This document shows, piece by piece, positions 15,705 to 48,643 of a stretch of 64,000 nucleotides of DNA (its first letter is position 1; every line of letters begins with the position of its first letter). A program made the translations under genes and the position numbers. The notes under the pieces are model-generated. The model was given only the letters and a program-made list of their open reading frames with translations. It was not told where the DNA came from and ran no database searches. The DNA comes from Chlorokybus atmophyticus. Its lineage: Eukaryota > Plantae > Mesostigma and Chlorokybus algae. The stretch is taken from contig RHPI01002119.1 of the NCBI GenBank assembly GCA_009103225.1, forward strand, positions 310,001-374,000, given 5' to 3'.

Positions 15705-16048
15705 TCACACACGCGTCTCACTCTTGCGCTTCCCTGAACCTATGATCAAGCCGGTGTCTTGCGGGTCTGGCCTGGGGGTAACCTTGTCCACGTACACGAC
15801 CTTAGACTTGGCCTTTTCCTGCAGGAAGACAACAGGGTCGGCACACAGTAACTCAGAACACGTAATTCACTGTGGGTTGCTTCAAACTCTAACCCTCCAC
15901 CCACCAGCAGCTCTTTGCGCCGCCTCTCCTCCGGCTTCACCCACAAATAATAGGCAGCAACGCCCGCAGCAACCCAAGCACCAACGCTCTTACGCCCGCG
16001 CACTCCAAACACGTCCTTCAGGCTGTCTATACGCGCTCCCCAGCTCAT
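15705..16048 (-). CDS. Small (85 aa) single-TM conserved green-lineage protein, 2 exons
   Basis: Exon 16048-15905 (MSWGARIDSLKDVFGVRGRKSVGAWVAAGVAAYYLWVKPEERRRKELL), phase-0 GT-AG intron 15904-15819, exon 15818-15705 (EKAKSKVVYVDKVTPRPDPQDTGLIIGSGKRKSETRV*). Resembles, from memory, a plant family with W..AG..AY.LW.KP and P.PDPQ.TGLI.G motifs. Confidence 0.82.
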
Positions 16049-17132
16049 ACGCTCCTCAACCAGTTTACCGTCTCCTAGCACCACGCCTTATGCCGCCGCC
16101 CACGCCTGCAACAATGCTGCTCGCCTTCCCAATTGAACCGTCACATGGTACAATGAACTGAAGAAGGCGCAGCTAATACTTAAAGCAACCAGCTTTTTAG
16201 CCGATATCGATGGCTTGTGCTGTGGTACCTGGGCAAAACAGAGGGATGTCGAGAAGACAGCTGATGTCAAGTTGTGACGGGGAGTGGCGGGAAGCGCGCA
16301 AAAGGTAATCTAACGAATATGATGCGAGCAGACTCATAAGCGTTGGGCGTATCGGACGGTGCAGAACTCTGTAGTTTGTGCAATCGCTTTGATACGGCTT
16401 TCGGGCACTCTGTGTCGTGGCTGCGGCTTGCCGCAAGCTGTCAGCCACCCATGCCGACGTGGAAGCCGCCGGCGTAACAGCCCCTAACCGCCCGACGCGG
16501 GATAACTTCAACCGTCAGATTTATTTTGATCTGAAGGGTGTGAAGCTCTTACAATGGAGGGTGTCAATGGTGTCCACGGCTGGGAGACGTAAGGGGGCAA
16601 CAGTTGGCGGGCCCAAAAAGAAGTGCAAGGAAAAACAAAGAGCAGGTGAAAGGCAGGACGCTTTCAGCGGTTCAGTGTGCTGACTGCTGACACATCGAAC
16701 CGTCGGATCGCACGGCCAATGGGCTGTGATAGTGCCACGCAGGTGCGGCACAGTCAGACCGACTCGCGCGTAATGTGCATGAATTTTTCCACACTGTCCA
16801 GGGGCAGCAGCACAACGGGCGGGTGTCGCAGCAGCCACGTAAGCCTACGTTGCGCTGTGTACAAGCGCTGCGCCGCTGGGAGCTCAGCGCAGGCTTGTCA
16901 CAAGCCGCTTGTGTGATGCAGCTATCAAGTGTACCTTGACCCCCCCCCCCTCCCCCTGGGGAATTGCCCCATGGGGCCGGTATTCTTAGGAAGGCTGGTA
17001 GGAGTTGCAAGCAGGGTTTGCTGCAACGCGGCGCGCCCACGTCGTTAGTCGCGGCGCCGCCAGATGACTGTGTGCATCGCGCGGCGGCATGTACCATCGC
17101 TGTTCGATCTAGGTGATCGAATGGCCTGATGA

Positions 17133-17206
17133 CAGTCGACCGCAATGATTCTGGCGGTCGACTGCAAGTCGACCGCCAGAATCATTGCGGTCGACTGCAA
17201 GTCGAC
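17133..17206. repeat. Perfect ~30-bp inverted repeat built from GTCGAC-bounded units
   Basis: Core GTCGACCGCAATGATTCTGGCGGTCGAC-TGCAA-GTCGACCGCCAGAATCATTGCGGTCGAC; five GTCGAC sites at 17135, 17157, 17168, 17190 and 17201. Confidence 0.9.
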
Positions 17207-17756
17207 CGGCTTCATGTCACAATGCGACCGCTATTACCTGCAAACTTGTAATAAACAAGCCGTTTTGCTCCGGTTAATCATGAAACCGAGGGACAAAAAC
17301 TCCCCTCTTTATACCAATGGCTCACGTGCACTGGATGCGCATGAGCCGTAAAAGGTTTGATTATAGTAATTTTAATCAACATTATTGTGATTTTATTACT
17401 TTATTCTTATTATTATTATAAACATAATGGGCTATGTGCGGCACATATGCGCCTCAACAAATAGCCCTGTATAGCGTAATTGTCACGACTAGAAATTGTA
17501 AAATCTTAGTTGTTTCATTAAACAAGAATAATATTCTTTTGGTAATTGAACGTAATCTTCAACACTTTCAGCTCTACTTAACCTTGCACACATGCTTTAG
17601 ATATTTTGAGCTTGCCATAAACGCAAGTTTGAACTTGATTGCATTATGAGGCCACGGCCGAGGGCATTTTCCAACATACGAGATTTCAACGTTATTACTA
17701 TTTTACGATGTTTGATGTTCCCGATCCTTAACTTGGAGGCCATCCGTATGCCCGCG

Positions 17757-17758
<2 letters not shown>

Positions 17759-17791
<33 letters not shown>
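17759..17791. repeat. (CA)n microsatellite
   Basis: Direct reading. Confidence 0.95.
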
Positions 17792-17795
<4 letters not shown>

Positions 17796-19149
17796 TTGTT
17801 GGAGATTAATACAACAACAGCAATGCAGTAATTGCTTTATGTGATATGTATACACAAATGTCATACATAATATGTGGGTGTGGGTGGGTGGGTGATACCA
17901 CCAACCTGTGTGTGCGTGCACACGTGCTTGTGCATATGTGTGGTTCTGTTTGCGTGCGCTTCTGTGCATTATAACGTGCCTCTATGTGCGTGCATTGTCG
18001 CTGTAACTATGTGTGTGCGTGCAGTGCCCTGTGTGTACGCAGAAACATGTGTGCACTTTTGTGCGTGCATGCATGTGTGCAAGCACGTGCGAGAGGGCGC
18101 AGGGGCGGGGAAGGGATGCTGCTTATGCGTTTTACAAGCAAACGCATGGCACCCACCTGCGGGCCTGGTCGCTTCCCTGGCTTGCGCTTGGTCGGCTAGT
18201 GCTTGGGCCGGGTTGCCGCCCTCGCCTATCCTCATTTTTGCGCCGAGTTGACCACGACTCCGCCTGGTTACCTGGACTACGCCGGAACGCGCCACCTTGG
18301 CCTCACCGCTGCCACCGCCGCCGCCGCCACCGCCATCGCTGCTGGTGACATTGGTGCTGCGGGCACGTGAACTGGCACGTGCTAAGCTAGGTGATTGATC
18401 GGTCAAAAGATCAACGTGCCGGCACCTTGCCGGCTACCGTCGCAAGCCTTCCTCACCTTGCTAATTTTGCCCCACATTGCCCCACAGGGCCGAAATGGAC
18501 CGCTTTTCATATCCCCATAAAGCCCAGTCCTGTAAGGGGTCGGGTGCCCCACATTAGGGGGTGGGCTAGTGTCGCACAGCAAGCATCCCCCGATATGGCC
18601 CGGCAGTACTGGGCGCCGCCTAATTTGACCCCCATACATGCCCCGCTTTGTTCTCAGGGTGGGTGGGGGATGTATTGGGGTACACCTGTTCGTCGCAAAT
18701 TTTACATGGTGACTGACTAAGGACTGAGGGACTGACTGGTGCCTGAGCCTGCCTAAGCCTGCCTGTTGCTGCCTAAAATGTTACTTTTGGACAGTTGGGT
18801 TTACCATTGGCTTGAGTGGACCGACGCAGACGGCCGCGGGCCGAAAGTGGTTGTCAGTGGCACTAACCGGCCGAGAGTTGTCAACCGATTACCCTTTAAT
18901 TAATGTGCACAGACGGCCGTTAGCCGGGAGTTACGGACAGCTGACAGCAATAGCCGGCAGTTTCTTTGCCGTTACACTGCTGTTAATATGTGACCCTTAC
19001 CTTTTGACAAAAGTTGGCAATTCTTGCCGTAAGCCAACACTACCACGCCATGCATCTTGTACAAACCTTGGGTTGATTGTTTGGTCTTGCACCTATAAGC
19101 CCACAATATATACAATGTACCGGCAGTGGTGAGAGTATGTCCACTTGCA

Positions 19150-20135
19150 ACTGAGCATCCGACTTGCGCATGAAACTACCCTATAACATTGAGTCTAGCT
19201 GTCGCACTCATGCGCAGCTTGTCAACCCGTAGTGCCTGCCTCAGAACTCCTCCTCAAACCCCCTCCTCCCGTTCCTCCTCCGACAAGTCCTTTGCTTCAA
19301 CGTTGGAGTCATTTTCATCCGCTGCCTCGCTCGCTTAAAGAACAGCGGCTACCTCGTCCTTCAGCTTGAATGTCAGCGCCTCGCCGTGCACGCGCATGCG
19401 CTTGATGGTCGTGTTGCTTTGAGAGTGACCACCTGCATTTGTAATGCCGTAACAGTGGCGTGCTGCTGGAGGACTAGCCCATCAGCATACACATGCTTAC
19501 CTCGTCTTTCGTTTTGTTGCACTCCGCCAGGCAGACAGTTAGCCTGCCGCGCAACTCTCGGTTCACTCTGACCAACATGGCAATCTGCAAGCATACTGCT
19601 TAATTGCCGCTGGAAACATTACTAGGTCATGGATTACCCGTTCGTGGTACTCCGCAGCTTCTCTTTTGCGACTTGTGAGCTGACGCAAGTAGAAACAGGC
19701 TGTGCATTTGCGAGATTGGTCATGCTGTTCATGTGCATGACACTGGAGGCTGTACATGAGGGTGTGCATGTAGTATTGACAGTGTATGTCATGTGCAAGA
19801 TACTTGAGGCTGTGCATGTGCAAGATAGAAGAACCTTGGCATGTGCCATTGACAGTGCATCGTAACCCACCTTGGTTATGCCAGTCTTGTTTGATCCCTT
19901 TAATCATGTTGCCGTGGTCGCAGCTGCTGGTGGGTCGGATGTTCTTGGAGGCAGTATTGTGGTGCCTTTGCCCACTCGGAGGGGGAGCTCTGTAAGATAT
20001 CGCCCGAGTCACTGTTGTTATTGGGTGTGCCCTTGGTAGGCATGGTGGGGTTTGACACCAAGGACACCCCTCCGACACCCTGCCCGCCCTGTGCGAACAT
20101 GGAACTTCCTCTCGGACCTCGACCACAATGCCCAC
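19150..20135 (-). pseudogene. Degenerate accessory gene remnant divergent from the transposase
   Basis: Fragments YLRQLTSRKREAAEYHERVIHDLVMFP, an intron GTAAGC...CAG near 19500-19430, and GGHSQSNTTIKRMRVHGEALTFKLKDEV, with several stops. Confidence 0.35.
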
Positions 20136-20563
20136 TACGCCCCTGGCAGCGCCGCCAACGATCCACTAAAAGCCACATATCCTCGGCATTACGCCCATGT
20201 AAGGGCATAGCTTGGCGGAGCTATCAATGGTGTTTTCATGCGCAGGCACAGCACTTGTCAATGGTACGAACTGCTATTGCCACTGCACAAAGGTACCATT
20301 TCGATGGTATCTTTTGGCAAAGGCATCTTCGTACCATTGAAACGGCTCAATCAGGATATTTATGCAGAGACTCACCTTGGGCGTGCAATGGCTCGATTGT
20401 ACCATAGTAATGGTACGACGAAGCCAGTGAATGGCGGCCAAGTTTCCCGCATGTGGCATGCAAGGGTAGCGGTGGCGGTGGCGGCGGCGGCGGCGGCTGT
20501 GCGTGTTGCTGGATATGATGCAGGCTACATTGGCGACGCCTGTGTCAACGTCAGTAGTGAGAT

Positions 20564-23500
20564 ATGGGAGTCCTTTGTCCGTATTGTCACATGCGCTTCG
20601 CCACACGCAGCTCGGTCTACATGCACATTGTTAGCAGCAGGGTGTGCAAGCAAATCAAGCTGTACGTCGGCCAGCGTCCATTACAACACGATGCAGGTCA
20701 TGTTGAACCGGGGAGTTCGATTCAGGATGCGCACATGCTCGATGCTGAAGGATTCCTCCAAGAGACATACGCACAGCAGCAATAGGAGGAGGAGGAAGTG
20801 AACGAGGGCTTTCGATGTGTGCGTGTGCATGAGAAACCTGTGGCACGCCAACATGGAAGTGAAGGCGTCCCTTCGCACGCGTCGGAATCCAGGTGGTATG
20901 GCTCGAAGCATGCTCTTGCAATGGCATTCGTGCAGTGCAACAACGGCCAAGGCCTGTCGACCTCCGACATGGGGCGGTCATCAAGTGCATCCGGAATGCA
21001 CACTTTCTGATGGAAGAGCTCCAGTAAAAGACCGGTGTGCATGTGGCCAGCTACCTCCGGACCACAATTGCTTTCTCTCAGTCTGAGGTGTGTTCACGGT
21101 GTGCGGTGCATGTGCTTCAACCATTAGAGCCATATCCCATATGCACATGCGATTGTGCTGCCGTATCAGAACTACGTGACGGCTGACCTGCGCAAGCCTG
21201 GAGATCCTAAGGATCAGGATATCAGCGTCACATATATGCCGGCCAAGGTCTGCGAAATGCAGTATTAAATGCAGTATCTATTCTGAGGCCAGCATGTTTG
21301 TTATTGCTCTTGGTCGGAGCAGGTATGGCTCGCGCGGTTGTATGGCAATCCATATGCCGCTAATGGCTTCAATCTCCAGTACAGTGGTGATGAGCACAGC
21401 TTTGGCCATCCTTCCACGGGGGATTGGTGGAAGGATGTGGAGGTGGATCCGAGGAGAGAGGTGGGGGAAGCGTCCTACTTGGCGCCTGCCAGTCTGTACA
21501 GTGACAAGCCCACGCTGGACAGCGCGGGCAAGCGCTCTAGCTACCCTGTAATAGCATCGCTTGCCAACTACAGATGGGACATGTATGCTAGCAACATGGA
21601 GGTTGTTATGATAGCGCTTCTGCCGGTGGTTTACGCAGTGGCCGGGCATCCCACCTGGGCGCAGGGCAAAAATTCGCTTCAATTTGAAAACGTGAGATTT
21701 TTCATGACGCTTTGAATAGTAGTGTTAGGGGATGTGAAGCGGCCGAGCTGGGAAGGTCTGCAGCTCATCGACCTGAATGGCGTCGAGCGTCGTGTGTTTC
21801 CTGCGCTTGCCAACTACATCAGCAACTTGCAGGTAGTGGGTATACATGGTTGTAACCGGATGCAGCCTGCTGGCAAACAGTGCATGGAGGATGTTGTCGT
21901 AGAGCATCCGAGTTTGTCGTGTTGTAGGAGACTGCCACACTTGCACGCAGTGTGTCGGGCAACCAAATACGACCTCCTTGCGATGTTTGTCTCGTCACCA
22001 AATCAGATCTGTTGGAGATGGATGAGGACCGGGAATTGAGAACCGAGGCCTTCTACACACCAGCAATACGTCAGCTGCGAGCGGACCTACATAGCGGTGT
22101 TAAGAATGCACGCGAAACAGCCAAGGCTTTGAAAGAGCAGCACTTCATGCATGTCGAGGAGGTAATGGTCAAATTATCGGCATTCATGCGGATGAATGGC
22201 TTTCCGTGAAACCAGGCAATGTGGTTTGGCAACAGAATGCATTGTGGGGTTGGCGACAGTCGCGGGTGCCGAAAGCTGACTGCTACTCTCGTCTTGCCCC
22301 TGACGCAATGCATGTGCTGGGAGGCATCATTGACCACCTGCTTGCTGCTGTGTACGACGCTGCGAAAGAACGTATGCGTCCATCCACAAGACAGATTCTG
22401 CAGGCCAGGCACGTTTTTGGTGTTGCTTTTGTGTTAAACACAAGAGCCAACGACACGTGCTCGCAAGCAGATGTGCACAGGCTGAATGCATGCAAGGCGA
22501 CTTTACGGGTTTCGCACTTCAAGGCACCCACAAACACAGTAGATTTCTTCCTGTCCGACCACTCCTTTCAGGTGGTGGAGAAAGTGGCGGTGCTGCAGCT
22601 GCTGCCGGTCCTTGCAGACGGTTTGTTTGCTCGACAGTGAGGGCAACGATTTCTTCACCATTGCTGCCGCATCGCTTGCCCAGTGGAACAAGAAGTTGCT
22701 CAAGGCGCATGAACACACAACAGAAACCCTGACCACAACCGACAACGAGCTGGCTGCCTTCAAAGCTGCAATGTTGCATCCGCTAATGTCGTCATATTCT
22801 GCACAGAAGTCAGGTTGGAAGATCGAGAAGATGCATCAGCTCACTCATTTTGAGCCGGCAATTGTCAGCAGTGGACACCTAAATTGGTTCAGCGCCAACC
22901 GCATGGAGCAAACGCACACCCTAAATATTAAACGGTGGGCGCGTGGTGGCAACAACTGGGACTACCAGGCGCGTATCCTGAAGGCATGGAGCTGTGCGGA
23001 ATATGTGAGAGAGGATGGCATGGTCGTGGATATCGAGATGCGCTCGGTCATGGGGCAGGCGCGGCAGCAGTGCTGTAATGTAATTGAGAAGACGGACAAG
23101 TTGCTACGGATGGATGTGCTGACAAGGAGGGAGTTCAGCCCGTACTGGAGCGGATCTGCGCGTAGCCGCTAAGTCGCCCTGAAGACTCCATTCGCCGACA
23201 AGCTGCCTGCCACCCTGAACAACTGGTTGAGGAGGGAACAACTGGAGTTGGCCGACGGGTGACGTGCTGTTCGCGTAGTAAACGGTGGCGCAGCGGTGTA
23301 CATGACATTATGAGCCAGCATGGCGCGCGCAGCTGGGATGTTCCATGGGCGGCCTTGGTTCTCTACACTTGAGTTGGAAGATGATGAGGACGGTGTGAAC
23401 GTGACGTGGTGGGCTTTGGCACTCCTTTTTCTGCGCGTGGTGGTGTGGGGTGTTAGCGGCGAGCGCGTGTGGAAGGAGGTCGTGTTTGTCCGCTGGTACA

Positions 23501-23694
23501 CGAAGCTGGATGTGACGAGCGACACAAAGTGCATCGCTCTGAAATGGGAAAAGCGTCGAGGGGGTGCACATCTCGATGTCGTGACTCTGGAGCAAGTAAA
23601 AGGCATTGTCCAGCTGCTCCCCATGTTTGACAAGGACAGCGCCCGTGTACAAGAGGGCAAGTATTGGGTGAATGTTCACTGCACTTCCACGTGA
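20564..23694 (+). mobile_element. Plavaka-type transposase with N-terminal C2H2 finger (degenerate)
   Basis: CPYCHMRF...MH zinc finger; AFVQCNNGQGLS; STGDWWK...APASLYSDKPTLDSAGKRSSYPVIASLAN; ERRVFPALANY; CDVCLVTK; LAPDAMHVLGGIIDHL; C-terminal FHGRPWF...VFVRWY. Several stops and frameshifts. Confidence 0.8.
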
Positions 23695-23890
23695 CACGTG
23701 TACTCGTCTCACTACTCTGAGTTTGGAGCATATCAGCCAGTTAGGCGTTGCTAATCGTATGCTAGGACTTTTGCATGTGGATGGGTACAATACCGGGCAG
23801 CTGTCATTGCACAACTGCCACCACAATCGAATGTGCCATGCAATAATCAGTCCGCCGTGTGGCATCCAGCATCAATATATTGCACATCAC

Positions 23891-24678
23891 TCAAGCCTCA
23901 TAATTCCATGACACAGGAGGGTAGTCACATCGCATATCTATTGTTTCAAGCATGAGACGCCCTATGCACTCCGCCATTGCGAGAGGAAATGCATTCGCTT
24001 TGGTAACGGCCGAGGTCATCGATGGCACTCCCAGCAATGCCGCCCCCTAGTGCTTGGAAGGCCATAAACCGAGTACATTTGCTGTGGCGCGTTTGATGTT
24101 ACGATTGTCTTCTTAGCGCTAGTGGACAGGTGCGGCGATAGCTATTCAACTGCCTTGCCCGCGTGCGAGCAGCGTGCAGGTGGGGTAGCTACCATTGGCT
24201 GTGTCTCAAACAGACGGTGTCGGAAAGTTGATAGGCCAAACATCGTGCCACAAAGGGGCAGATTGAGTCTGAATGAGGAAGCTGCTCCTGGCACATTCTC
24301 AATCACAAACTTGACCTGGCTTGCAAGCAGCAAACGTTGGACGAGCGGTATCATATCCTGGTGTCTCCAGAATGTGCCATGTGCCGCCCGTTGAGGTGCC
24401 GGGATAGCACCTGAATAGGCCTGGCACGGTGGAGTGGCCCAGATGAGCTCGTACTCGCTCAGCTCATACTCGCTCAGCTCTCTTGCACTCAGGGTGCATA
24501 CATCGCGGTGTATGAAGGGCAGCGGATACTCAGAGGAGGGACTTATGTCCATCCCGGTCACGTCAAAGCCTGCGTGGTATAGACTGACACTGGCACCGCC
24601 ACCGCCGCAGAATAGGTCGAGTGCCCTTGGTCTGCGTGTGCGTCCAAGCTTGTTGTCAGATGGCGTGTATGTGGTCAA
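23891..24678 (-). pseudogene. Phage/bacterial-type C5 cytosine DNA methyltransferase
   Basis: Motif I RALDLFCGGGG, catalytic motif IV ATPPCQAYS, motif VI VIENVPGA, then LCGTMFGL..RHRLFE. Premature stop at 24142; a frameshifted motif-X-like AMAECIGRL near 23950-23980. Confidence 0.9.
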
Positions 24679-24696
24679 GGCTGGCCGTGGTGCTGA

Positions 24697-25080
24697 CTAG
24701 GGATTAACAATAATACCGTCCGGGCTTACTTTGCGACTGACATTCTCCCCTCCGGCGCGCAGAACACGGCGTGCCCCGTCATCTGATGTGTACGCGAATA
24801 TGTTGTGCCCTTTCAAGTTGATGGTTTGTGGTCGATCACCGTCATCGAATACTATACGGTGCTGCCCTGCAAAGACATTTTCCATTGCACCATGCATATA
24901 TGATGCGTCCTCAATCTCGCACGCCATGAAGCGATGCTGACCTGACGCTTGCTTGAATGATTCCACAACGCCCGCATACCATTCCCCATCCAGCGGCCAA
25001 TGCACCATGACACTCACACCGATCAGCTGCTGGCATCCCAACTTAACTGCGTATCGCAGCCAATGCAGTGCGCTGTCCAA
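24697..25080 (-). CDS. Tudor domain, in frame with the methyltransferase
   Basis: LIGVSVMVHWPLDGEWYAGVVESF...GQHRIVFDDGD after splicing a 75-nt GT-AG intron (24941-24867). Separated from the MTase ORF only by an in-frame TAG at 24697-24699. Confidence 0.8.
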   Translation of the reverse strand: MDSALHWLRYAVKLGCQQLIGVSVMVHWPLDGEWYAGVVESFKQASGQHRFMACEIEDASYMHGAMENVFAGQHRIVFDDGDRPQTINLKGHNIFAYTSDDGARRVLRAGGENVSRKVSPDGIIVNP

Positions 25081-26207
25081 CGATCGATGGTCTGCCTCCT
25101 CTACAGCGGCCAGGGAATGGAACTGCCCACGCCCACACCGTGGAAGACTGCTCTGAATGCGACAACAGCTTCAACATGCATGAAATAAGCATACGCCGAA
25201 TATAACATGCAGTGATACATCGCGGTCCACTCTGCCGAATTACCTCCACAGCATCCACCACCTGTCCACTAACCGCATGTCCCGGTGTTGCCCATGTGAA
25301 GAAGCGCATGGGTTCCCCTCGCCACTTGAAGCATGAGCGCGAGAACGATTCGCACACGCACTGCACGCAATGGAAAACGGGTTCCTTGCACAGCACTTGG
25401 CCGAGGCGGCAGCCAAACACGTCGACATTGTGTGTGGTGTGATGCCAGCAAGCAGCACTAAAACCGTGGCACACTGTCTGCACTCACTAGCATTTGGTCA
25501 AGTGTGCTCGCATTTGCTGCCTACGACCATTGGCACATACGTACGCATTGCATTGTGGGCACACCAAGCATGGTCTCCTAGGTGAGGGGGATTCAACTGC
25601 TGCCGCCGACATCATGCAAAGTAGGAATCGGCACGGCTGCCCACAAACTGAGCGAGACTTTAGGGTATGGGCATCAATTTATGGTTGCCAGCTTATAAAC
25701 CCTAGAAGGGTCAAACTTCAAGTGAAGCACGATTGTACCATGGACGCTATTGCAAACCCATGCATGGTACTACATCAACATGAATGGTACTCCATCTGCT
25801 AATGGTACTACAGTACAAGGATACTCGCATACTACCACGATCGTAGAGTAATACTGTGCTGTCATTCCATGGAGCCCAGAGCGCTGTCCGAGTTTGTTGC
25901 TGTCAACCACGCTCTGTACAAGCGAGGTATGCAAGCCATGCACTGACTCATGCGCTGGGCAGTCATCATACACATGTACAGCCAATGCTTCTGACAATAG
26001 CAAATCTCGGGTGCACCATGCACCATGCTGCAACTATACATGTACCTACATGGTTCACAAGAAGCCAACACAGAACTACAATACATGCACAATTGTCATC
26101 AAGGCGGGGGCCAAATTACCGCCGACACGTTGGCGTCTTGCATCAGGCGTGGCGACCAAAACGGGTGAGGTTGGTTGCAGAAGGGACACGTTTGTAGATT
26201 CTTCGAT

Positions 26208-27083
26208 TTATTTGCCACGGTCTTTTGATGTGCTATGATGCAGACATGGCACATCGCTTTCTTGCAACAGGGCGACTCCCCATCCGCTGACGGGGGGTGG
26301 CTCTTCAATGCGACAAATCAGCACACATGGTGCGCGCGGGTGTGCAAGCTGCCTCTGCCACCAAACTCTGTTATCGCGTTGCAGGCGTAGCGACTCCCAT
26401 CTGAATGGCGCAGCATAACGCTCCACTACCTGCTCGATCACCTGTTGCCCATCTGCCGCCATACACCACTTGCTGGTTGTGGTGGTTTCGTTCAGCATGC
26501 GTTCATCCAGGCCCTCGACATGGCTGTCGTCACTGGTGTACTCCCCCGCATCGCCATTTTCTCCGAGCTTCCACACAATCAGCTCGACATGCCGTTTGAC
26601 ATACAGCCACTGCCAGCCAAAGCATGCCAAGTACAGCTCGAATGGTTTTACTTGCCACCCAGTATGTTTGCTCAGGTAGATCTGCTTGCACACATCTCGA
26701 CCCGCATCAGTCGACATCGACAGGTAGATCTGCTGCAGCAGGTCGAAGTTCCGCTCCGCGGATAGCTCTTGCACATTGCCGGGTTGCTGCGGCAGCAACA
26801 ACACCATGATATCGAGGACGGCGAGGGGCAACAACGTACTACGAATGGCCATATCGTGTATGGGTTCCAACCACGGCCAATCCCCAAAGGTCGGTTTAGA
26901 CCACACTTTCCGCGTTTGCTCCCACTCATTGCATACTTTCGTCACCCACCTCAAGGCATGCCGCATGCGGTGATGCAGCGCGTCTTGGGCGTATTGTAGG
27001 GCGATCAACTCCTTTGCACTACGAGTCAGCCCCTCAAAGCGTCTGCGCGTCGGTGCTTTGAGCTTGAGCAGCTCGTGCCGCAC
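26208..27083 (-). CDS. Hypothetical element-borne protein (291-aa ORF), family not recognised
   Basis: Long open frame with globular composition (WQVKPFELYLACFGWQWLY, APFRWESLRL), on the same strand as the OTU and MTase ORFs. Confidence 0.5.
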   Translation of the reverse strand: MRHELLKLKAPTRRRFEGLTRSAKELIALQYAQDALHHRMRHALRWVTKVCNEWEQTRKVWSKPTFGDWPWLEPIHDMAIRSTLLPLAVLDIMVLLLPQQPGNVQELSAERNFDLLQQIYLSMSTDAGRDVCKQIYLSKHTGWQVKPFELYLACFGWQWLYVKRHVELIVWKLGENGDAGEYTSDDSHVEGLDERMLNETTTTSKWCMAADGQQVIEQVVERYAAPFRWESLRLQRDNRVWWQRQLAHPRAPCVLICRIEEPPPVSGWGVALLQESDVPCLHHSTSKDRGK

Positions 27084-27535
27084 CAGCTGTCTCTGGACGA
27101 TGCTGAGCAGCCACTTGACGCTGTAAACCCGCCTGTGCCTACTCCGGACACACAGTCAGCCTCAGTGAGGCTTCAAGGCGCTGTGCTTCTTCTAATGTTG
27201 TAACGGTGCCTCACTTTTACTTTTTTGGTCATGTCAGCGTCCTTTGTTCCAACAACCTTCTTCTTCTTCTTTTTTTTCAACCTGCACATCCTGGCAGACG
27301 CTTTCCGTGGCACTGTCACTGAGAGGAGGTAAGGCGTTATCTTCTTGCTCCACAGCCTTGCGCTTGTTGGTTGCCTCCCGTTCCTCCACGACCTCATGAT
27401 GCTTCATGAGGTCGAGCATGAAGCCTTTGTCGCTCAGCGCAGCTTTCAGGACACCTCAATTAATCTCTTTACCAACAAGACAGGCTGGGATCAATGTGGC
27501 AAGCTTAGAGGGAGAGGGCGAGCTACCGCTGCTTC

Positions 27536-27537
<2 letters not shown>

Positions 27538-27567
<30 letters not shown>
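27538..27567. repeat. (GAT)n trinucleotide repeat
   Basis: Direct reading. Confidence 0.9.
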
Positions 27568-27569
<2 letters not shown>

Positions 27570-27979
27570 GATGCCTCCGGATGGTCAGAGTGCGGTGGCA
27601 AGTGAGTCTCCGCGGCAGAAAGGGAGGGTGCTGAATTGTTATTGCGAGCATGTGGCTGTGGTTGAGGGGAGGCAGGATGTGCCTCCCCTCAATGTGCGGA
27701 TGTGCATTGAGCTGTGCAATGTGCACAGCTCAATGCACATGTGCATTGATGTGCACATGCACATCAATGCACATGTGCGCACATCAGTGCACATCATGCG
27801 CACTCGGCTACTTCTTGCCTAGCACACGAAGGCGAGGCCTGAGGAGTTGGCGCAGCACCCTGGGTCACAACCGGTGGTAGTGGGGAATTGGCAACGCCAT
27901 TCCGCCACTCTCCGATTAGGTGTGTTACCTCCGATGGCACTTCATGCATAGGCCACGACCACTGTTCGGTGCTTGCAGG

Positions 27980-28835
27980 CTTGAGGAGCCAAAAGTGTGC
28001 TTTTAGCTCATCAGGAGCAGTTGCCCACCAACAGAACTGAGTTGGGGGCTTCTTTATTTCCAACCCAAACTGCGCTGCCGGGTCGTAGCACCCACTCCCC
28101 ATGCTCGCGCTGAACGGTCACGCAGCCAATCAACAAGCCCAGCTTGTTAGCAAACATGGTCATCTGCAGGTGCTCGACGTACATATCTTTTCTCCGCACG
28201 AGCTGTCGCACCTTGGCCATGGCTATGTCAATGTTGCAATTGACATCAGCCAACATAGTCACAGGCAGTTTGTCGTAATACTGCGCCACCTCTCCCGCGG
28301 CACCAGTGCCTCTGCAGAAGTCTAGGATTCTGCTCGCCACGCCTGCATCGACAGCCTTGGCGGTGATTTTGCGGAGAGTGCCCCCCCTGCCGTCGTCGTC
28401 CATGGTGTCCAGCATGGCCCAAAATCTGCTCGAGCTGGGGCACTTGTGATTATCCAGGACACTTTGCGCTATGGATGGCCTGGGGCAAAATACACAATGG
28501 TAAAAGCAATTACCATCCGTTGGCGCATTGAAATGGTCCCATGAGGCGAGCTGGCCACCTAGCATGACTAATGGCCGTATGCGGGTTGCGGCCAGCTCCT
28601 CTGATGACTCGCTGGCAGGTGGTGACCCCTGCTGCATGCGCATACAGCACTCTAATGGTGTGTCCAACTGCGGATGGCAAGAGTCACAGTGACTGATAAA
28701 GTACCTGAGTTTGGGGCAGACTGCCGGCGTCAACTTGCAGCGGGTGGGGTAAGGTAGGTGCAGAAGCCACATCGGTTGTTGCATTGTGCTGTGGTCTCGC
28801 CGGTTGCGCAGGAAGAATTGTTGCCCCGCATTCAC
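27980..28835 (-). CDS. OTU-like cysteine protease / deubiquitinase domain (frameshifted near the catalytic His)
   Basis: Cys box APTDGNCFYHCV; MYVEHLQMTMFANKLG (equivalent to W...E...A); His box KAHFWLLKP in an adjacent frame near 27985-28010. Confidence 0.7.
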
Positions 28836-29814
28836 CGGTGCTGCTTGTAGAGGAAATGGCAGTGCATGAAGGACTGGTGCCGAGGAAGGTGGTTGCGCTC
28901 AGGCTGCGAGGGGAGCAGGAGCGGCAGGTGAGACCACTTGTGCATGCAGCCAGGGGGGCTGTATACAAGACGCAGGATAAGATGGCTCACAATGTTGCAA
29001 AGGACGAATAATAACTTATGCAGTGCCTGAAGCATTGTTACCAAGGCACGAGCATAAAAGACAGCAACTTACCTCAATGGCCCGTGAGCTGCATGGAGCA
29101 GGGGAAGCCATGGGGGCTGACAAGGTGGTAGTGGGTGCACTCTCCCCGCCACCCTTGCAGACTCGTCACGGAGCTCGTGAGTTATGGGCACATCATGCGC
29201 CACTGCCCCAATGGACATGTCGGGATTCAACAGGCCAACATGCATGTTAAGCTGCTGCCGCATTGCCGCCGCGCCCATCAGCAAGTGGGATTGAAGGACC
29301 AGTTGATGGGATTGAATCTAGGCTTGCATAGGAGCTCCAACAGGACCTAGTGCACTGTGCTGCTGTCAACCAATCACATGTGGGTTAGTTGCATGCTTGC
29401 GACACTGCAATTGCAATAGTCAACTGCATCACACCGTCATCAGTTGGTTGCTTCAAACAGTCACCTGCGGCATTGCTGGTTGATGCACGAATGATTGCAT
29501 GGACTGCGTCATTGCTGGTTGATGCACTATTAGTTGAATGTCGGACAATTGGCCACGCTCTCCTGTGCTCAAACCCAGCCTACTTCGCTCGGCACGCGCG
29601 CGCGACTTCGCGCGCTCACGCACATCTTAGCATGCAAAGGTAGGCATGCATTGGAGGTGCATGCAGTCAACATGCACAGCGAGATTGGCAACAACATAGC
29701 GCCGCCCAGCTCTGTCTATCCGCTCTGGCTTCCGCAATGTCGGCTTGACTGTAGGGTGGGTATGGGTGGATAGTGGAGGCCTGCAGACACGCTACATGTA
29801 TCACATGGACTGCG

Positions 29815-30150
29815 CTAAAAAGTAAATTGCTCTTGCAAGGAAATGCATGTGACTGTTGAGCGTACCTTTGCATTCCTTTGTGCTTGTTCCCACAGCCGCA
29901 ATTGGTCCCGCATGGTTTTGACAAGAGGCTCCAAGGACTGCAGCTCCTGATCCACTCCTTGTTGCAATAAGCGAGCCACCAAGCAGCTCTCTGTGTGAAG
30001 ATGGTCCTTAATGGCTTGCCTGCTGGTTTGTCCAATGTTGGTGATGCATGTTGAACATCCCCATTGCTGACGCCTGCCATGATCTATGACGTGGCGCCCG
30101 GTAGTAGCTGGCTTCGCTGCTTGAACTCTTACGACCACAACTTCTCGCAA
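29815..30150 (-). CDS. Zinc-finger-like fragment upstream of the OTU ORF
   Basis: WGCSTCITNIGQTSRQAIKDHLHTESC (CxxC...HxxxxxC spacing). Confidence 0.4.
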   Translation of the reverse strand: MREVVVVRVQAAKPATTGRHVIDHGRRQQWGCSTCITNIGQTSRQAIKDHLHTESCLVARLLQQGVDQELQSLEPLVKTMRDQLRLWEQAQRNAKVRSTVTCISLQEQFTF

Positions 30151-31392
30151 GATGTGCCACGCCGCCGCCGCCTCCGACTCCAGGTCCTCCGCCCCCTAGT
30201 CGAACCCAGGCCCACTATGCCTGACATTCGACCCGTCATCAACCTGGTGCCCCTGCGTGCCATCATCCGGCCATCAATGAAGCGTGTTTGGGTGAGTGCA
30301 CGCTAACTCCCATTTGGGCTGATCGAGCAATGCCTCTGTCGTACCATGAATGGTACGACAGAGCCATTGTACGGCAATGGCTGGGGTTGGACGAGAGATG
30401 CCTCTGTTGTACCATAAATGTTACGACACAACCATTGTTACCAATGGTTGTACGAAGCATAAATGGCACGAATGCATAAGTCGTACCATCAACCACAGGA
30501 GCAAGGACGCACTACAAGTGCGACTCTAGTGCGGGACACTAGACGTTCAAAATCGCCTCATTTTCGTTTTCGCGCCTCGTACATTCGGGCGGGCCAACCG
30601 GCGGCGGCAGCGTTGAAGGCGGCAGCGCCACTATCAGCTAAATAGGCGGCACCCGACTATCAGTTAGAGAGATGCCTCGTGGTCCATCCGTAGGTGCACC
30701 TCGTCGTGGAGGTCGGCGGCAGCTGTCCACATTGCCCCCAGTGTTCAACCAGGCAACCGTCGCCAACCAATCGCAGCAAGACCCCGCGCTAACGCCCAGC
30801 ACATCACAACAACTCCACCTGACACCGCAGTCGCAAGGGCAAGCTAGATTGCATGCGTTCTTGATGCACTGTGCACGTTGCTTTTTGCTCAACTCCTAAT
30901 TTGGATGCTTGCTTCTTTCATGACTGGCACAATGTCTCACTGCATGCGTTCTGGATACACTGTGCACGTTGTTCTTCTTTCGCAACTGTGAGGGTTGCAT
31001 CTTTCATGGCTGGCAGCATGACTCATGTGGTTGTGCTTGCAGAGGGTCGATTGGAACCCCCAACCCAAACGCATTTGGCCGTGACGTGGCAACCTCGGCC
31101 GTCAGCAACCCTTCCCCAAGCAAGTGGAAGATAGGCAACGAGGTAAGCATTGTGTGACACTGTGACACTGTGTGTATGTGTGTAACTGTCACGCCCACAG
31201 GGCAGGCAAAAGTCATTCTCTGTCCCTTACTTATGTGGTAAGTAAGATGAGACCAAGTGGGGACCCACACTACGTAAGTGTGTGTAGTGCTTGTGGGTGT
31301 GCTCTCATGTAGGTCTGCTCTAGAGCCTGTGCGGCCTTGAGCATGATGAACTACACAAGGCATGATGGCAAGCACAGGGCTGATCATAGCCG

Positions 31393-31790
31393 ATGAGACA
31401 TCATATGATGTACAGAGACATATGCGTGCATATGTCCGCATGTGTATGCATGTGTTTGCATATGTGTGCACATGTACGCATATGTGTGCATATGCATGCA
31501 CGAGAGGTATGTACTAGATGTATGCATGTATATGCATGCATGTGCATATGTGTGCATATGCGCGCATATGTATGCATAAGGATGCATATGTATGCATGAG
31601 TATGATGTCCTAGGCTGATGTGACCAGCCAAGGACGTTCACAACGTCCAAGGATGATGTGTGTGATGTCCTAGGCTGATGTGACCAGTCTAGGGACGTTT
31701 ACAATGTCCGAGGCTGATGTGTGATCAGTCTTGGGCGTTGAAAGAGGTCCAAGGGCTGATGTGGCAGCCCTAGACATGAGTTGTGGTAAA
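31393..31790. repeat. ATGC/ATAT low-complexity tract followed by ~60-bp tandem repeats
   Basis: GATGTCCTAGGCTGATGTGACCAG recurs at ~31604 and ~31664, with a degenerate third copy. Confidence 0.7.
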
Positions 31791-32199
31791 CGCAGCCATG
31801 ACAAGGCATGTAGCCTTGGACTTGGATGTTCTAGGTTGGAGAGCAGCAAAGAGAGGGTATATGAACGGCCTCAACATGTGTTGAGGCAGCTCAGCATGTG
31901 CATACTCGACTCTTGTGTGTGGGGTGCCTAGTTTAGTTGTTCAAGGGGCTCTCCCTCTCATCCCATGTGGGGTGTGATGTCCGTGGCAGCTTTGCACATG
32001 TGTGTGAGGTGTGCTTGAGTGTGTGAGTGTGTGGGAGCTGAGTAGAGAGGTTGGTGTCATCCTCTCCTTCCTTGATGCGGTGCTGTGACTTCCTCTGCAA
32101 GGTACTGCACCAGTGACGCTGGTAGGGCCTCTGGTAGTAAGTCCTTGTGCTTGTGCATAAGTTTGCCAAGCCGCCCAGCAAGTAAGTGAGTGGTATCGT

Positions 32200-33458
32200 T
32201 GCAGTAACGGATTGTTCTTGTGTGGACAGCATTTGCGAGATGCCATCGTTGAAATCATAAACGGCCACTGGGTAGAGAGCCACGTTTATCCCAAGGAGGA
32301 CACTATTCGTAACGTCATGTGTCAGGTGCTGTGAATGCTTCATGACCGCACTGCACCGTGACACTGACCAACCTGCCCGTGACAGGTAGTTGGCTTCGAC
32401 TATGACGACGAGGCCGATGCGGCCAAGTTCTATGAAGTGTACTGGACTCCCAAAGAGTGCCCCTTCCACTGGAGTGTCGCCTTGAAGAAAGCTACGCAGG
32501 TCCGGTCTGAGAACGTCACCAAGATCAAGCATGTCCTTGAGAAGGAGTACAAGTGGACACTGTTTAACAGCAACAAGCGCAAGTGAGTTGGGTCCCTCAC
32601 CACCATGTTTGCTATGCAACACTGCCTTCTTACTCAGCCTCCATACACACGTACGCATCTCGCCTATTGTAACCGATTCGATCAGGCACATCGACGCCCT
32701 AATGGACCCCGAGACTCAAAAAGCCCAGATGCGCAACGCGCTGCAAAGTAAGTCACAAGCACTATTCTAGCCTGGTGCAGGCTCAACTTGAACTATCTAT
32801 ATCGTGACTAATGCCTTGTTGGTATGACTGTCGCAGACAAGTCATGGCGGAGATCTGAGGTGACCGACAATGCAGACCCGGAGCGGAGGAGATACATCCA
32901 TGTATGGGGCAATCCCATAACCTGTCAAATGATCATGCAATGCTGGTCTTACGCCGTCACTACACCTGGTCGCCGGCAGCTGACAGTCAACCACCTCGCA
33001 TACCTGTTGCTTACGGTGAGCACTCTGAACTCCATCATTAGCAATTTAAGAATGCTGTAGCCCCCAACTACAGGCTTGCAAACGCGTTGCAGTGAATGGT
33101 GGCTTTCGATGCCACTAAGACATGCCTGTAAACTACGCAGGTGGAGCGCATTCTAAAGGGCAAGGATGGAGACCCTCTCCTAGCTGCCAGCTTCGACACA
33201 CATGAAGAGTACCTCAGCGAAATCAACACCACGATCATGTTAATGAAGCGGGAGATGAGGCAACGGTACGCAGCCCTCCAGCCATTCACCCTTGTGAAAA
33301 GCCGCACTGCATCTTGTGTCGAATACCTGAAAGATCCCAATTGGCGCCGGCCGCAAGAGACAGCATCTCGTGACCCGCTCGCTGATGCAGAAGCGGCATT
33401 TGATTGGCTGGCACAACCGTTTGAGGAGGAAGAGCAAGCTCCGGCGTCTGCTCCATAG
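32200..33458 (+). CDS. Intron-containing hypothetical element-borne gene
   Basis: Exons LRDAIVEIINGHWVESHVYPKEDTIRNVMCQ | VVGFDYDDEADAAKFYEVYW...TLFNSNKR | ...NHLAYLLLT | VERILKGKDGDP...APASAP*, bounded by GTG/GTGAG...CAG introns. Confidence 0.55.
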
Positions 33459-33904
33459 GCCCCAGCGCGTGGTGCTTTGTTCCATGATGACGAGCAAAGC
33501 GATGATGGAGAGGAGCTGTAGCGGAGTTGGTAGTCCGTTTAGCTGGTAGTGTACATAGCTACAAGGCTCTTGTGACTGAGTGTTGTGCATCTTAGTCAAT
33601 CGTCATTATGCTCATGCATGTCAATACTCATCCCTATGATATACAACAGAACTGCATTCGAGTCACATTATCGAACTACAAGCCTAGGCGAGTGACTGAG
33701 AGACACTGTACACATTTCAGGTACATGTACACAGCAAAGGCACATAACAATGCTGGCAGTCAGTGACAGTCGCGTGTAGTCAAGCTATGCAAATACATAT
33801 GACGACAGTTAGGCATTAATCACCTTCAGTTGTTAAAGAATGCCTTATTTTATCGATAATTACCTAGTTGGTGCTTGTGAATTAGGCTTAGTCGCCTGCG
33901 CTGG

Positions 33905-34280
33905 ACTGGTGTGTAACCTCAGGTGCAGGTGCCTGTCACATAGGCCGAGTCACCTAAGTAAGACTGATGTGTAAGTTGCATGTGCGTGCTAATTAGGTGT
34001 AGTCACCTGTTAAGGCCTGATGTGTAACTTACAGGTGCCCGTTAAATAGTTGTAGTCACCTAGTAAGGCCTGATGTGTAACTAACAGGTGCCTGTTAATT
34101 ACATAAAGTCACCTGTTAAGGCCTAATGTGTAACTAACAGGTGCCTGTTAATTATATAACGTCACCTGTTAAGGCCTGATAGGTAACTGACAGGCGCCTG
34201 TTTATTAGGCATAGTCATTTGTTAAAGACTAAATTGTAACAAAAAGGGCCTGATAGTAACGGAAGTTACTATCAGGTCCC
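33905..34280. repeat. 53-bp tandem array with internal inverted motifs and a terminal hairpin
   Basis: GTCA(C/T) phase at 33949, 34002, 34055, 34108, 34161 and 34214. Units contain CACCTGTTA...TAACAGGTG. Hairpin CCTGATAGTAAC-GGAA-GTTACTATCAGG at 34249-34276. Confidence 0.9.
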
Positions 34281-34691
34281 TGTATTAAGATTACAGGTGG
34301 ACTGAGCCACGACAGTCTAAATCAGTGTCCTCAGGTGGCACGGCTGTTGCCAATATTTAGTCGGCCGGCAGGGAAAACATATTTCGACGAATGCACATAC
34401 ATCACAACACAAATACTTGTGTCATGCGAGTCGTTATGATGGTGTGCATATGTAAGTATAAATACACATATATACGTGTATGTATTCGTAAACACATACA
34501 TGTACATATATGTATTTTTGTAAACTACATGTAATGTACATGTTGGCATGTACGATACTATTATGGTATACTTATGTAAATACATATATACACACGCACA
34601 CACATATACACACACACATATATATATATATATATATNNNNATGTATGTGATTTATTTGTACAGGCTACGGGGTATACATACATATACACC

Positions 34692-34969
34692 CCGTAGCGC
34701 CCAGAACTTTACGTGGTTTTGGGATTTTTTTCTATTGTTTTTCAGTTCATCAAGTTAAATCCTAGGGGTATTTTTCATTTTGTTGTTTGCGCGCAACTTT
34801 GGCCATATTCTACCGCTATTTTAATGCATATAACAATTGAGACCGGCGCCGCGAGACCTCCGTAAAAGCATAGCTTGTCATTACGTATGTACACTAGACG
34901 CCCTAGTTGATTTCACGTAAGCGACCATTGTCGATATATTTTTAACACGTAAAGTTCTGGTCTCTACGG
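34692..34969. mobile_element. Putative MITE (~280 bp, AT-rich)
   Basis: Inverted termini CCGTAGCGCCCAGAACTTTACGTG / CACGTAAAGTTCTGGTCTCTACGG (22 of 24 match); TA follows the right end only. Confidence 0.55.
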
Positions 34970-35746
34970 TATATGTGTGTTGTTTCTTTCTATATATAGC
35001 TATGTATACACATATATACATAATGTAAAACATAAAATTTGACTGTATATTTACTGTATGTAGCACGCGCGCGCGCGCACACACACACACACACGCGCGC
35101 GCGCACACACACACACAGTAGTTTGGTATAGCAATGTATACTTTTGAACATTCGTTATATACATATGCATTTATTTGTACACTTGTATAGTTTACACATA
35201 TAACGACACCTTCTGGTATATGTATGTGATTTATCATGTTAAAATGTGTATTACAGAATTAGACCATTTTTACAAAGATAGCTACCGTACTATTTTCAGT
35301 ACACGTACATTTTAAATACTTGTAGTTGTATTGATGATGGTATTGAAAATCGGATTTTTTTAACCATCAAGCTCCAAACCGTGAAGTACTCATATATAGC
35401 CGTGCGATGTATGGCCACATGCAGAATTTGAAGGCATTACGAGAACAGTAGCATTGAGGTTTGTTGGTCTGTAGTGTGGCACCCTCATTTTCAACATTAT
35501 ACCAGAACTGCAGCACAGCACATAAAGGGTAATTATAAATTAACTCATGGTATAACAAGCTATATCATGGCTAGCAATTTTAAGGTGCATCATGCATGCT
35601 TGCAAACGCATGTCACATACACTCGCACGCACATAATTAAGTTTAAGAGGTTGTTTATGTGATAACACCATAGCACATTGCGTAGCCGTCATGGTAGGCT
35701 GCATATCCATAAGCATGTTTGGAAGATTCACGCGACACTTTCATGT

Positions 35747-36141
35747 TGTAACGGGAGCAATAATAATAGGGGTATTATTGCTACCTAAATAACACATTTT
35801 ATATGAATAAGTATTTAAATATGCTTATTTATACCTCTTTTATACGGTTCCTCGCTTATTAAAGGCTATGATGCTTTATCATAGCTTAAATAAGTCCCAA
35901 TGGGTGTAAAACCGCTTATTCAAGCATATTTAGTGTCACATTTGATATAATGTGATCACTATCTCGTTAGGTACCTTACGATAAGTATCTTTGGATAGGT
36001 ACCTTATCGATATGTACCTTATCTGAGCTGTGATTGGCTCACGCTAGATTTCCTAACTACCCTATCTGTAGGGTCGATGTCTAGTTGTGAGTTGATTATC
36101 GAGAGGTATATAGTTGATATACTCTTGATATAAAAGGTCAC
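35747..36141 (+). repeat. LTR of chromovirus A (left copy)
   Basis: TGTAACGGGAGC...AAAGGTCAC, nearly identical to 37073-37468. Confidence 0.92.
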
Positions 36142-36925
36142 TTTCCACCCGCAAACGGACGGTCAAACTGAGAGAGCAAATCAAATACTGGAAGAAATGC
36201 TTCGCCACTATGTGGCTCCCAATCATGCTGATTGGGACAGGTACTTGCTAATGGCAGAGTTCGCTGTGAACAACGCGTGGCAAGAAAGTGTAAAGGAAAC
36301 CCCATTTTTCTTGAATTATGGGATTCGCCCAAACACACCAGCGTCATTGCGTGTACCTCGCCATGCCGTGACTGTGCCAGCGGCAAAGGAATTTGCCACT
36401 AACATGCAAGAAAATTTGGCTCGAGCCAAGCTGTGTCTGTCAGAAGCACAGGACAGGCAAAAAGCTTATGCTGATACACATCGAAAAATGGCCACTTTCG
36501 ATGTCGGCGATAAAGTTTTGCTTAATGCAAAAAACATAACCATCAAAGGTACGGGTGCTCGCAAGTTGCTGCCCCGATGGTTAGGTCCTTTCTCTATCAC
36601 TGATAGAGTTGGTACGCACGCTTATCGACTGCAATTGCCCCCAAGTGTGCGTATACACAACGTGTTTCATGTAAACTTGTTGAAACCTTACCGCTCAGAC
36701 GGTAGAACACAGCCTCCACCACCGCCAGTTGAGGTGGACAGCGAGCTCGAATACGAGGTGGAAGCTATATTGAACCATAAGCTAAATGGTCGAGGACGCG
36801 CAACTCGCTATTTGGTGAAATGGAAAGGGTATGGCCCGGAACATAACAGTTGGGAGCCCGACAGGCATCTTACGCACTGCCGCGAGTTGCTTCGAGCTTA
36901 TAGGGATTCATGTCCTGTCCCATAA
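36142..36925 (+). mobile_element. Chromovirus A integrase C-terminal part plus chromodomain
   Basis: FHPQTDGQTERANQILEEMLRHY, WLGPF...HNVFHVNLLKP, EYEVEAIL...YLVKWKGY...[21 protein letters not shown] precedes the next LTR. Confidence 0.93.
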
Positions 36926-37072
36926 ACTGTGGGCTTGGTTTTATGACAGACTGGCAGTGCAGTTTCATTACCACCCTGTCATTTCCTGCTATCTCACTGG
37001 TTACAATTACTCGAAATCAAGCCTGATCAACTTGAGTTCAACGAGGACGTTGAAAACCTAAGTGGGGGGGGA

Positions 37073-48405: not shown

Positions 48406-48643
48406 AGGTCGAGCATCTGTGTTTGCTTTGTGTGACGATGTTGCTGTACTAGTAATGAGAGAGTGAGCATCTGTGCAGGCTGATGATAGCTGGCCATACT
48501 GCTTTCCTGCTGACTTTGCTCTGTTTGAGTCTGGTAGTACTTCGTAACTAGCCGCAGTTATGGTCCCATGATTTACCATACACGGACATGGACACACAGG
48601 CTGGCGCAGGTCAACACCAATCATCAGTACAGCACATACCACA

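Follow-up and report, generated by a model that had tools for sequence, protein, structure and literature searches.

The DNA analysed here is a 64,000-nucleotide stretch of the Chlorokybus atmophyticus genome (assembly GCA_009103225.1, contig RHPI01002119.1, positions 310,001 to 374,000 of the forward strand), hereafter called the window, whose own numbering is used throughout. The spliced genes for Utp14, a ubiquitin hydrolase and a kinase, together with Gypsy elements that bear chromodomains, mark it as eukaryotic DNA. Our subject is a 15,703-bp block within it (18689-34391), in which a Plavaka transposase gene is accompanied by sequences for a C5 cytosine methyltransferase (MTase), a Tudor domain, an OTU deubiquitinase-like domain and two further spliced genes. 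An initial annotation, made from the sequence alone, had described the region as one giant Plavaka-type DNA transposon with Tudor and C5-MTase modules, an OTU protease, an uncharacterized 291-aa open reading frame (ORF) and zinc fingers, able to write and read epigenetic marks in a combination that it did not recognise as described.

The transposase gene (20564-23694, plus strand) is spliced and broken: it starts and stops where the initial annotation had placed it, but its frame holds at least five in-frame stops. The single ORF at 21287-21712 matches the Pfam Plavaka profile (PF18759; E = 7.4e-8); reading through one stop in the exon improves the match to E = 1.3e-11 and 44.7 bits, which is well over the family cut-off of 26.3, and covers positions 82-225 of the 325 in the profile. 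The protein contains the motifs YSD, CDVC, DAMH and MEQTH, whose catalytic roles we presume; CDVC (21979) and DAMH (22302) stand in the expected order, no second His follows in this copy, and the likely second Asp is an Asn (YISNLQ). The N-terminus resembles a C2H2 zinc finger at scores under the Pfam cut-off (E = 0.008-0.013), and the last ORF of the gene gave no match in PDB, Pfam or PHROG.

The MTase lies on the minus strand at 23891-24696 and belongs to a small phage and bacterial family, as indicated by matches to Pfam DNA_methylase (E = 6e-6) and PHROG 363 (E = 5e-21). Motifs I to VIII are intact, including FCGGG, PPCQ, ENV and RHRLF, which correspond to motifs I (FxGxG), IV (PCQ), VI (ENV) and VIII (RxR) of C5 enzymes. 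Identity to phage and bacterial relatives is 38-49%. In a protein search restricted to 101-322 aa, a range in which fused eukaryotic forms could not surface, 7604 of 8000 scored candidates fell under E = 1e-3, and the 120 relatives listed were 41-49% identical. Matches in phages numbered 309 records (186 from mycobacteriophages), and the best 80 genome loci of relatives were all bacterial and drawn from many phyla. All 162 whole prokaryotic or phage relatives were stand-alone proteins (median 251 aa from stop to stop, maximum 453), and at none of 165 loci did another gene of the present element stand beside the MTase relative. In this copy a stop and a frameshift precede motifs IX and X, which are out of frame; indels of related copies, described below, restore them to frame.

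Directly upstream of the MTase and in the same frame is a Tudor exon of the PDS5/RDM15 type (24835-25026, minus strand), with a 75-nt in-frame GT-AG intron at 24867-24941. It matched PDB entry 7DE9 with E = 5.7e-5, while a Pfam search of the unspliced pieces gave no match. Once the intron is removed, the alignment to RDM15 is gap-free, with W, Y, F, D and D spaced as W616, Y623, Y641, D643 and D645 of that protein, the last three of these methyl-lysine cage residues being assigned by spacing. One TAG, a possible splice acceptor, separates the two domains, and from that TAG to MTase motif I there is no ATG, so that the MTase is without a start codon of its own and most likely requires the Tudor exon. 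Both modules named in the initial annotation are present, but we infer, with good though not full confidence, that they are encoded as one protein. Predicted 5' exons of this Tudor-MTase gene (25046-25615, minus strand; from translation only) contain Cys/His-rich motifs and gave nothing significant in Pfam. A search for a footprint of the MTase target found none that was clear, word depletion in the element being similar to that in the rest of the window; of the 11 C losses that could be seen, 4 affect CG sites.

The OTU-like domain (27983-28898, minus strand) carries a DGNC Cys box at 28503-28517 and an AHFWLL sequence resembling a His box at 27983-28000. Pfam was silent on the ORF at 28011-28898. 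In the Atlas, however, this ORF was placed at 0.93 with a cluster in which 34% of members are annotated as OTU and with which it has 181 features in common; the cluster consists of Nucleocytoviricota proteins, a taxonomy drawn from few records that does not imply transfer. The top ten rows of both Foldseek and VIA-align were all OTUs, none of them significant (E of 0.24 or more, Z of 4.1 or less), using a fold model with pLDDT 44 built on an alignment of relatives chosen by the DGNC motif. These motif-found weak relatives score as OTU in Pfam, one of the four over the cut-off; they are 23-25% identical to the present protein and sit on low-GC viral or metagenome contigs. The Cys box and the OTU-like features support the OTU assignment; the fold scores are weak. 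The AHFWLL sequence is at the place expected for the catalytic His but in the neighbouring frame, and it received no score from the profile; no indel that would restore the frame was present in the 12 inspected out of the 50 that distinguish related copies.

Upstream of the OTU domain, predicted 5' exons (28899-30266, minus strand; from translation only, with no Pfam support) include a C-x2-C-x12-H-x4-C motif near 30050. On its other side, at 26099-27131 on the same strand, a 291-aa ORF is joined by a likely frameshift to a RING-like motif (26177-26327). The reading frame of the 291-aa ORF was confirmed as open; its AF2 model has a pLDDT of 38. The RING-like tail scored under the Pfam cut-off (E = 0.06-0.09), and with the C2H2-like scores above, and the other Cys/His motifs seen by eye, the zinc fingers of the initial annotation are only weakly recovered. 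Since no ATGGTAC cluster (see below) separates the OTU domain, the linker, the 291-aa ORF and the RING-like tail, these parts probably form one long gene.

Two further spliced genes flank this set. The smaller (19254-20043, minus strand) is divergent from the transposase, has an uncertain start, contains a stop and is known from translation only, although it is covered by contigs of related copies; no Pfam match was found for the pieces tested. The right-hand gene (30672-33521, plus strand) has about seven exons in our model and also contains a stop; it gave no Pfam match and no viral relative, and its 5' part is joined to exon 3 in related contigs.

The five predicted gene starts are connected by a shared upstream motif, ATGGTAC, noted in the initial annotation and here borne out by counts. 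The interval 18400-34400 has 13 copies, where 200 shuffles average 1.9 ± 1.4 (maximum 8), and the other 48 kb have three. All 13 internal copies fall into three clusters, an arrangement reproduced by none of 200,000 random placements. Cluster 1 (five copies, 20261-20416) separates the left gene from the transposase gene, cluster 2 (four copies, 25735-25808) is 120 nt upstream of the predicted start of the Tudor-MTase gene, and cluster 3 (four copies, 30341-30489) lies between the OTU gene and the right-hand gene, so that two of the clusters stand between divergent genes; distances to the five gene starts are 75-218 nt. The GTAC core resembles what we take to be the site of SBP-box factors. As an alternative to a host SBP-box factor, the protein that binds ATGGTAC might be encoded by the element itself. 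The motif offers a handle on the timing of the element's switch-on. One copy outside the element, at 16145, precedes a small ORF (15746-16087, minus strand) by about 100 nt, so that host promoters may use the motif as well.

The block is bounded by short inverted repeats, which moved its limits from the 18400 and 34300 of the initial annotation to 18689 and 34391. The left repeat, TTCGTCGCAAAT (18689-18700, plus strand), coincides with the start, at about 18690, of a related contig from public run X3 (see below); the right one (34381-34391, minus strand) is its inverse with one base fewer. The dinucleotide TG at 18687-18688 recurs at 34392-34393, immediately after the right end, as a candidate target-site duplication, for which the chance expectation is 1 in 16. 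The GC content drops from 0.42 to 0.30 immediately outside 34391. In the window the terminal pattern has two sites, a number reached in none of 100 shuffles, with the caveat that the 11-12-nt pattern was itself derived from these two sites; a 9-mer seed search did not recover the termini. Plavaka elements have terminal inverted repeats and a target duplication of 2-3 bp, which the present ends fit with moderate strength, in one copy only. CACCTG/CAGGTG was also tried as the ends and dropped, having no matching duplication and being frequent in the subterminal array. That array, already seen in the initial annotation, consists of tandem palindromic 53-bp units at 33873-34252, and the feature as a whole extends to 34276, its last part being a 12-bp perfect hairpin. 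The left subterminal region (18708-18765) shares short repeats with it (GGTGACT, GCCTG and GACTGA).

To examine linkage we used contigs of public sequencing runs, compared with window positions 15801-31400. Six runs were listed, three of which contained about one fifth of the window's words, and four were compared: X1 (study P1), X2 and X3 (one sample of study P2), and X5. The comparison gave 652 substitutions and 50 indels, of which 40 and 12, respectively, were inspected in detail. The block is covered by contigs of X1, X2 and X3, from two studies, at about 95% identity to the window; X5 has almost zero cover and X2 has a gap at about 26720-27760, and such gaps carry no evidential weight. 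A 2521-nt contig of X3 (record 19; 22735-25233) holds the 3' half of the transposase gene together with the MTase and the Tudor exon, which answers the possibility, raised with the initial annotation, that transposase copies are never linked to the MTase/OTU block. A contig of X2 (record 14; 25267-26583) contains the start of the MTase gene together with the RING-like motif and the 291-aa ORF, and one of X3 (record 23; 30172-31186, continuing at 32209) links the start of the OTU gene to the right-hand gene. Among the contigs listed, depth along the block is even: 87-109 for eight of eight in X2, 5.7-8.6 for the seven of X3 that lie in the element, and 118-142 for six of eight in X1, depth not being equal to copy number. 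The 776 variant contigs of X1 that were compared, from less than 90% to more than 99% alike, point to a repeat family.

Two nested insertions are visible inside the block. A 1017-bp solo long terminal repeat (LTR; TGT...GCA) at 31187-32203 lies in an intron of the right-hand gene and is flanked by a 5-bp duplication, GTAAC; loose contig ends of X1, X2 and X3 stop at 31186 and resume at 32209, showing that related copies are missing this LTR. A 118-nt palindromic insertion (27683-27800) is likewise missing from the main contigs of related copies; these join 27682 to 27801 at a depth of 149 in X1 and 111 in X2 (side of 24 letters). Without these two additions, both absent from related copies, the element measures about 14.6-14.7 kb.

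The copy in the window is dead: it has acquired stops, frameshifts and insertions, and its transposase, MTase and OTU genes are broken. Where these breaks could be compared, they are private to this copy: the stop at 20783 is CAG in X1, X2 and X3, the MTase frameshift is missing in the same three runs, and loose contig ends of X1 lack the stop at 24142. Positions at which the window has A/T and the relatives G/C outnumber the reverse by 287 to 130, 266 to 110 and 239 to 100 (2.2-2.4 fold). The family itself is likely intact, though less surely so for every gene. A genetic code in which TAA and TAG encode Gln was considered and rejected: with the standard code the long gypsy and host frames run uninterrupted and have CAA/CAG codons, and some of the element's stops are TGA.

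The bridging contigs, and the fact that the block is enclosed by inverted repeats flanked by a 2-bp duplication, led us to regard 18689-34391 as one transposon, as first proposed in the initial annotation; that it is a single mobile unit, a DNA transposon of Plavaka type, we consider very likely. Our full reading, to which we assign a probability of about 0.72, is that the block is a decayed copy of a repeated Plavaka-type element of about 14.7 kb, likely of the cut-and-paste kind, with a Plavaka transposase, a phage-type C5 MTase that we predict to be fused to the Tudor domain, an OTU protein predicted to end in a RING finger, and two other genes.

Several observations weigh against this reading. 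Among the contigs listed, none covers the whole element and none links the OTU exon directly to the transposase. The evidence for the right end, in a region past the 31400 limit of the contig comparison, is a repeat of 11-12 nt that includes one indel, together with a two-letter duplication, and an open scan for inverted pairs returned one pair scoring above the chosen ends and three equal to them; none of these four rival pairs carries a flanking duplication. The ends read TTCG..CGAA and have neither the TGT of PlavakaA nor the CATCA of PlavakaB, and we therefore file the element as Plavaka-type, neither A nor B. Protein searches with the C-terminal half of the transposase and with the Plavaka exon, covering longer proteins only, found no relative, and the 291-aa ORF has none in the 50% protein library (0 matches), the Atlas or the viral contigs. 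As for the cargo, RDM15 E647 is not retained in the Tudor domain, and MTase motif X is diverged: of 3192 chunks scored with a C-terminal profile of the family, the shifted frame comes out on top, yet with E = 1.3.

The main rival accepts a single transposon and treats its cargo as passively captured baggage of no use to the element, in the style of Pack-CACTA. The diverged motif X would fit this, as would published giant algal elements, whose accessory genes, in the accessible part of the report, are many and of unknown function and whose nested insertions are fixed (PMC12477816). Against it, the catalytic motifs and the Tudor cage are retained, a prokaryote-type gene is part of a spliced model with its own ATGGTAC cluster, and the checkable breaks are absent from the main related contigs. 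We therefore view passive capture as unlikely, while taking it more seriously than any other alternative. That the block is a chance mosaic, in which a small Plavaka element lies beside independent insertions or a segmental duplication, is suggested by the abundance of nested elements in the window, by the two real insertions inside the block and by the absence of the whole block from any single contig. The bridging contigs and even depth of the main contigs, the one inverted-end pair with a duplication, and the ATGGTAC cluster shared by each predicted gene start all speak for a common unit, making a mosaic improbable.

Endogenous giant-virus DNA that includes a transposase would account for the Nucleocytoviricota cluster nearest to the OTU in the Atlas (few records, with no transfer implied) and for the low-GC viral or metagenome contigs on which the weak OTU relatives reside. 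Yet identity to those relatives is just 23-25%, no viral hallmark was found among the ORFs scanned, the genes are spliced, and the transposase, the 291-aa ORF and the right-hand gene have no viral locus. A viral origin for the block as a whole is accordingly very improbable; for the OTU gene alone it is possible.

The element can be compared with published mobile elements as far as the accessible parts of their descriptions go. Among the closest are giant Plavaka elements of the red alga Bostrychia moritziana (17.4-19.1 kb), which carry three accessory genes, among them PAG2, an N6-adenine methylase with a SET domain, and PAG3, a ParB domain with a 2-oxoglutarate (2OG) oxygenase that is invisible to Pfam (bioRxiv 10.1101/2025.02.11.637652). 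They and our element have in common the transposase family, a tandem inverted-repeat array and a DNA methylase that is linked with a chromatin domain, and Bostrychia copies are, like the one described here, mostly degenerate. They differ in their cargo, which in our element is a C5 cytosine methylase with Tudor and an OTU (plus RING-like) protein. No Pfam matches of PAG2 or PAG3 type were found among the ORFs scanned, three of which are unassigned, PAG3 itself being invisible to such a scan.

Plavaka elements have also been reported in chlorophytes and, with TET/JBP cargo, in fungi (PMC12730594 for the fungal ones). Fungal PlavakaA ends in TGTCG(G/C)AAA with 2-bp duplications (definition 5'-TGT..ACA-3') and PlavakaB in 5'-CATCA..TGATG-3' (Kojima 2025, PMC12730594). 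Our element shares their transposase family and the 2-bp duplication, and its inner CGTCG(C)AAAT resembles the PlavakaA end; it is about twice as long, and its cargo is predicted to write 5-methylcytosine (5mC), whereas the fungal cargo oxidises it.

Cytosine methylases are known from retrotransposons, namely SymbioLINE-Dnmt and SymbioDIRS-Dnmt3 (PMC5890265) and the EpiLTRs, which combine a DNMT, DAM and a chromodomain (bioRxiv 10.64898/2026.05.21.726589). These are likewise mobile elements with a cytosine methylase, in EpiLTRs also with a histone reader, but they are retroelements, whose DNMTs are of DNMT3 type in DIRS and sister to DNMT4 in EpiLTRs; here the element is a DDE DNA transposon, the enzyme is small and of a phage family, and the reader is a Tudor domain. 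Individual domains of the cargo have been described in Mariner-1_OLpv, found in a virus (C5 methylase; PMC3627910), brown-algal Gypsy-10_Ec32 (Tudor) and Sola1-1_Ec32 (ParB with an N4C/N6A methylase; both PMC12477816), and Helentrons (OTU; PMC6431247), in each case singly and, in the parts of these reports available, neither combined nor in a Plavaka.

Stand-alone C5 MTases of PHROG 363, from mycobacteriophages, Streptomyces phages and bacteria, have the same motifs and the same short C-terminal region as the enzyme described here. The gene in our element differs from theirs in having introns and, in frame ahead of the MTase part, a eukaryotic Tudor exon. For the Tudor domain the reference is Arabidopsis RDM15 (PDB 7DE9), which binds H3K4me1 (PMC8184781). 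The W/Y/aromatic cage and both Asp positions of RDM15 are kept in our spliced model, but its Glu647 contact is missing. RDM15 itself belongs to the host and acts in RNA-directed DNA methylation (RdDM), and no methylase domain is noted in the accessible text (PMC8184781).

Our literature search found no giant DNA transposon with a cytosine methyltransferase and no CACTA-type transposon with an OTU deubiquitinase. Nor did it find a DNA transposon that combines a Tudor-fused phage-type C5 methylase with OTU, the scope of the search excluding Iyer 2011/2014 and the Bostrychia supplements, which could hold similar cases. The theme of epigenetic cargo in mobile elements is therefore known, with a giant Plavaka carrying methylase-SET and 2OG domains and LTR elements carrying DNMT, DAM and chromodomain already in print (as far as the accessible texts go), and the novelty that the initial annotation suspected narrows to this exact set of cargo, which appears to be new.

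How intact copies might use this cargo can be outlined as a model. The transposase would excise and insert the element by DDE cut-and-paste, leaving a 2-bp duplication, and a factor binding the ATGGTAC clusters would switch on the five genes together. The Tudor domain would dock the fused enzyme on nucleosomes monomethylated at H3K4, and the methylase would place 5mC on nearby DNA, most likely that of the element's own copies. The OTU/RING protein could remove ubiquitin from, or add it to, histones or silencing factors, with the combined outcome that the element manages its own chromatin state. The writing and reading of marks proposed in the initial annotation does not hold for the present copy, in which transposase, MTase and OTU are broken, and for intact copies it is deduced from conserved motifs only. 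We hold it tentatively, at somewhat less than even odds, that the accessory enzymes are active and act on the element's own chromatin. More speculative still, and in our view doubtful, is the full form of the model. Here intact copies would specify a novel DNA methyltransferase, both reader and writer, assembled within a DNA transposon from a C5 methylase of phages and a Tudor domain that reads H3K4me1; it would be co-expressed with the transposase and the OTU/RING protein through the shared motif and would couple 5mC on chosen chromatin to ubiquitin editing.

If this is true, the element would show, while still under way, how phage enzymes give rise to DNA methyltransferases that are directed to chromatin. 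The epigenetic tools of giant Plavaka/EnSpm elements, so far adenine methylases, SET domains and TET-type oxygenases, are extended by a cytosine writer with a histone reader and by a deubiquitinase. An active Tudor-methylase would constitute a compact, naturally assembled, chromatin-targeted 5mC writer, and the element offers a test case for why a transposon should carry a mark that usually silences transposons.

The surroundings of the element contain several other repeats. Contig cover of the left flank is patchy and low; X1 and X2 contigs of depth 12-21 cover 18118-18690, with a joint at 18184-18393 and CCCCACA repeats, and this segment may be another repeat or an extension found in a subfamily. 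Farther left, a 65-bp near-perfect palindrome of 33-bp units (17133-17208) has one arm skipped by an X2 contig, and the two ends of a 1343-nt X5 contig match two 21-nt spots, at 16936-16956 and 31245-31265. A pair of direct repeats 7.5 kb apart (3551-4085 and 10999-11595; 83% identical), with short repeats also at 4143, 4561 and 13453, is possibly an old element. An Rfam scan of 16000-36000 gave no matches. To the right, a short LTR element (35747-37467) has two 395-bp LTRs (97.7% identical), between which just the tail of an integrase, including its SH3 domain and chromodomain, is left, and a full-length chromodomain Gypsy (38726-44845), with gag and pol in shifted frames and 643-bp LTRs that are 99.4% identical, is a young insertion. 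The host genes lie beyond, at 48600-60100, and comprise Utp14 (minus strand), a ubiquitin C-terminal hydrolase (plus strand) and a protein kinase (minus strand).

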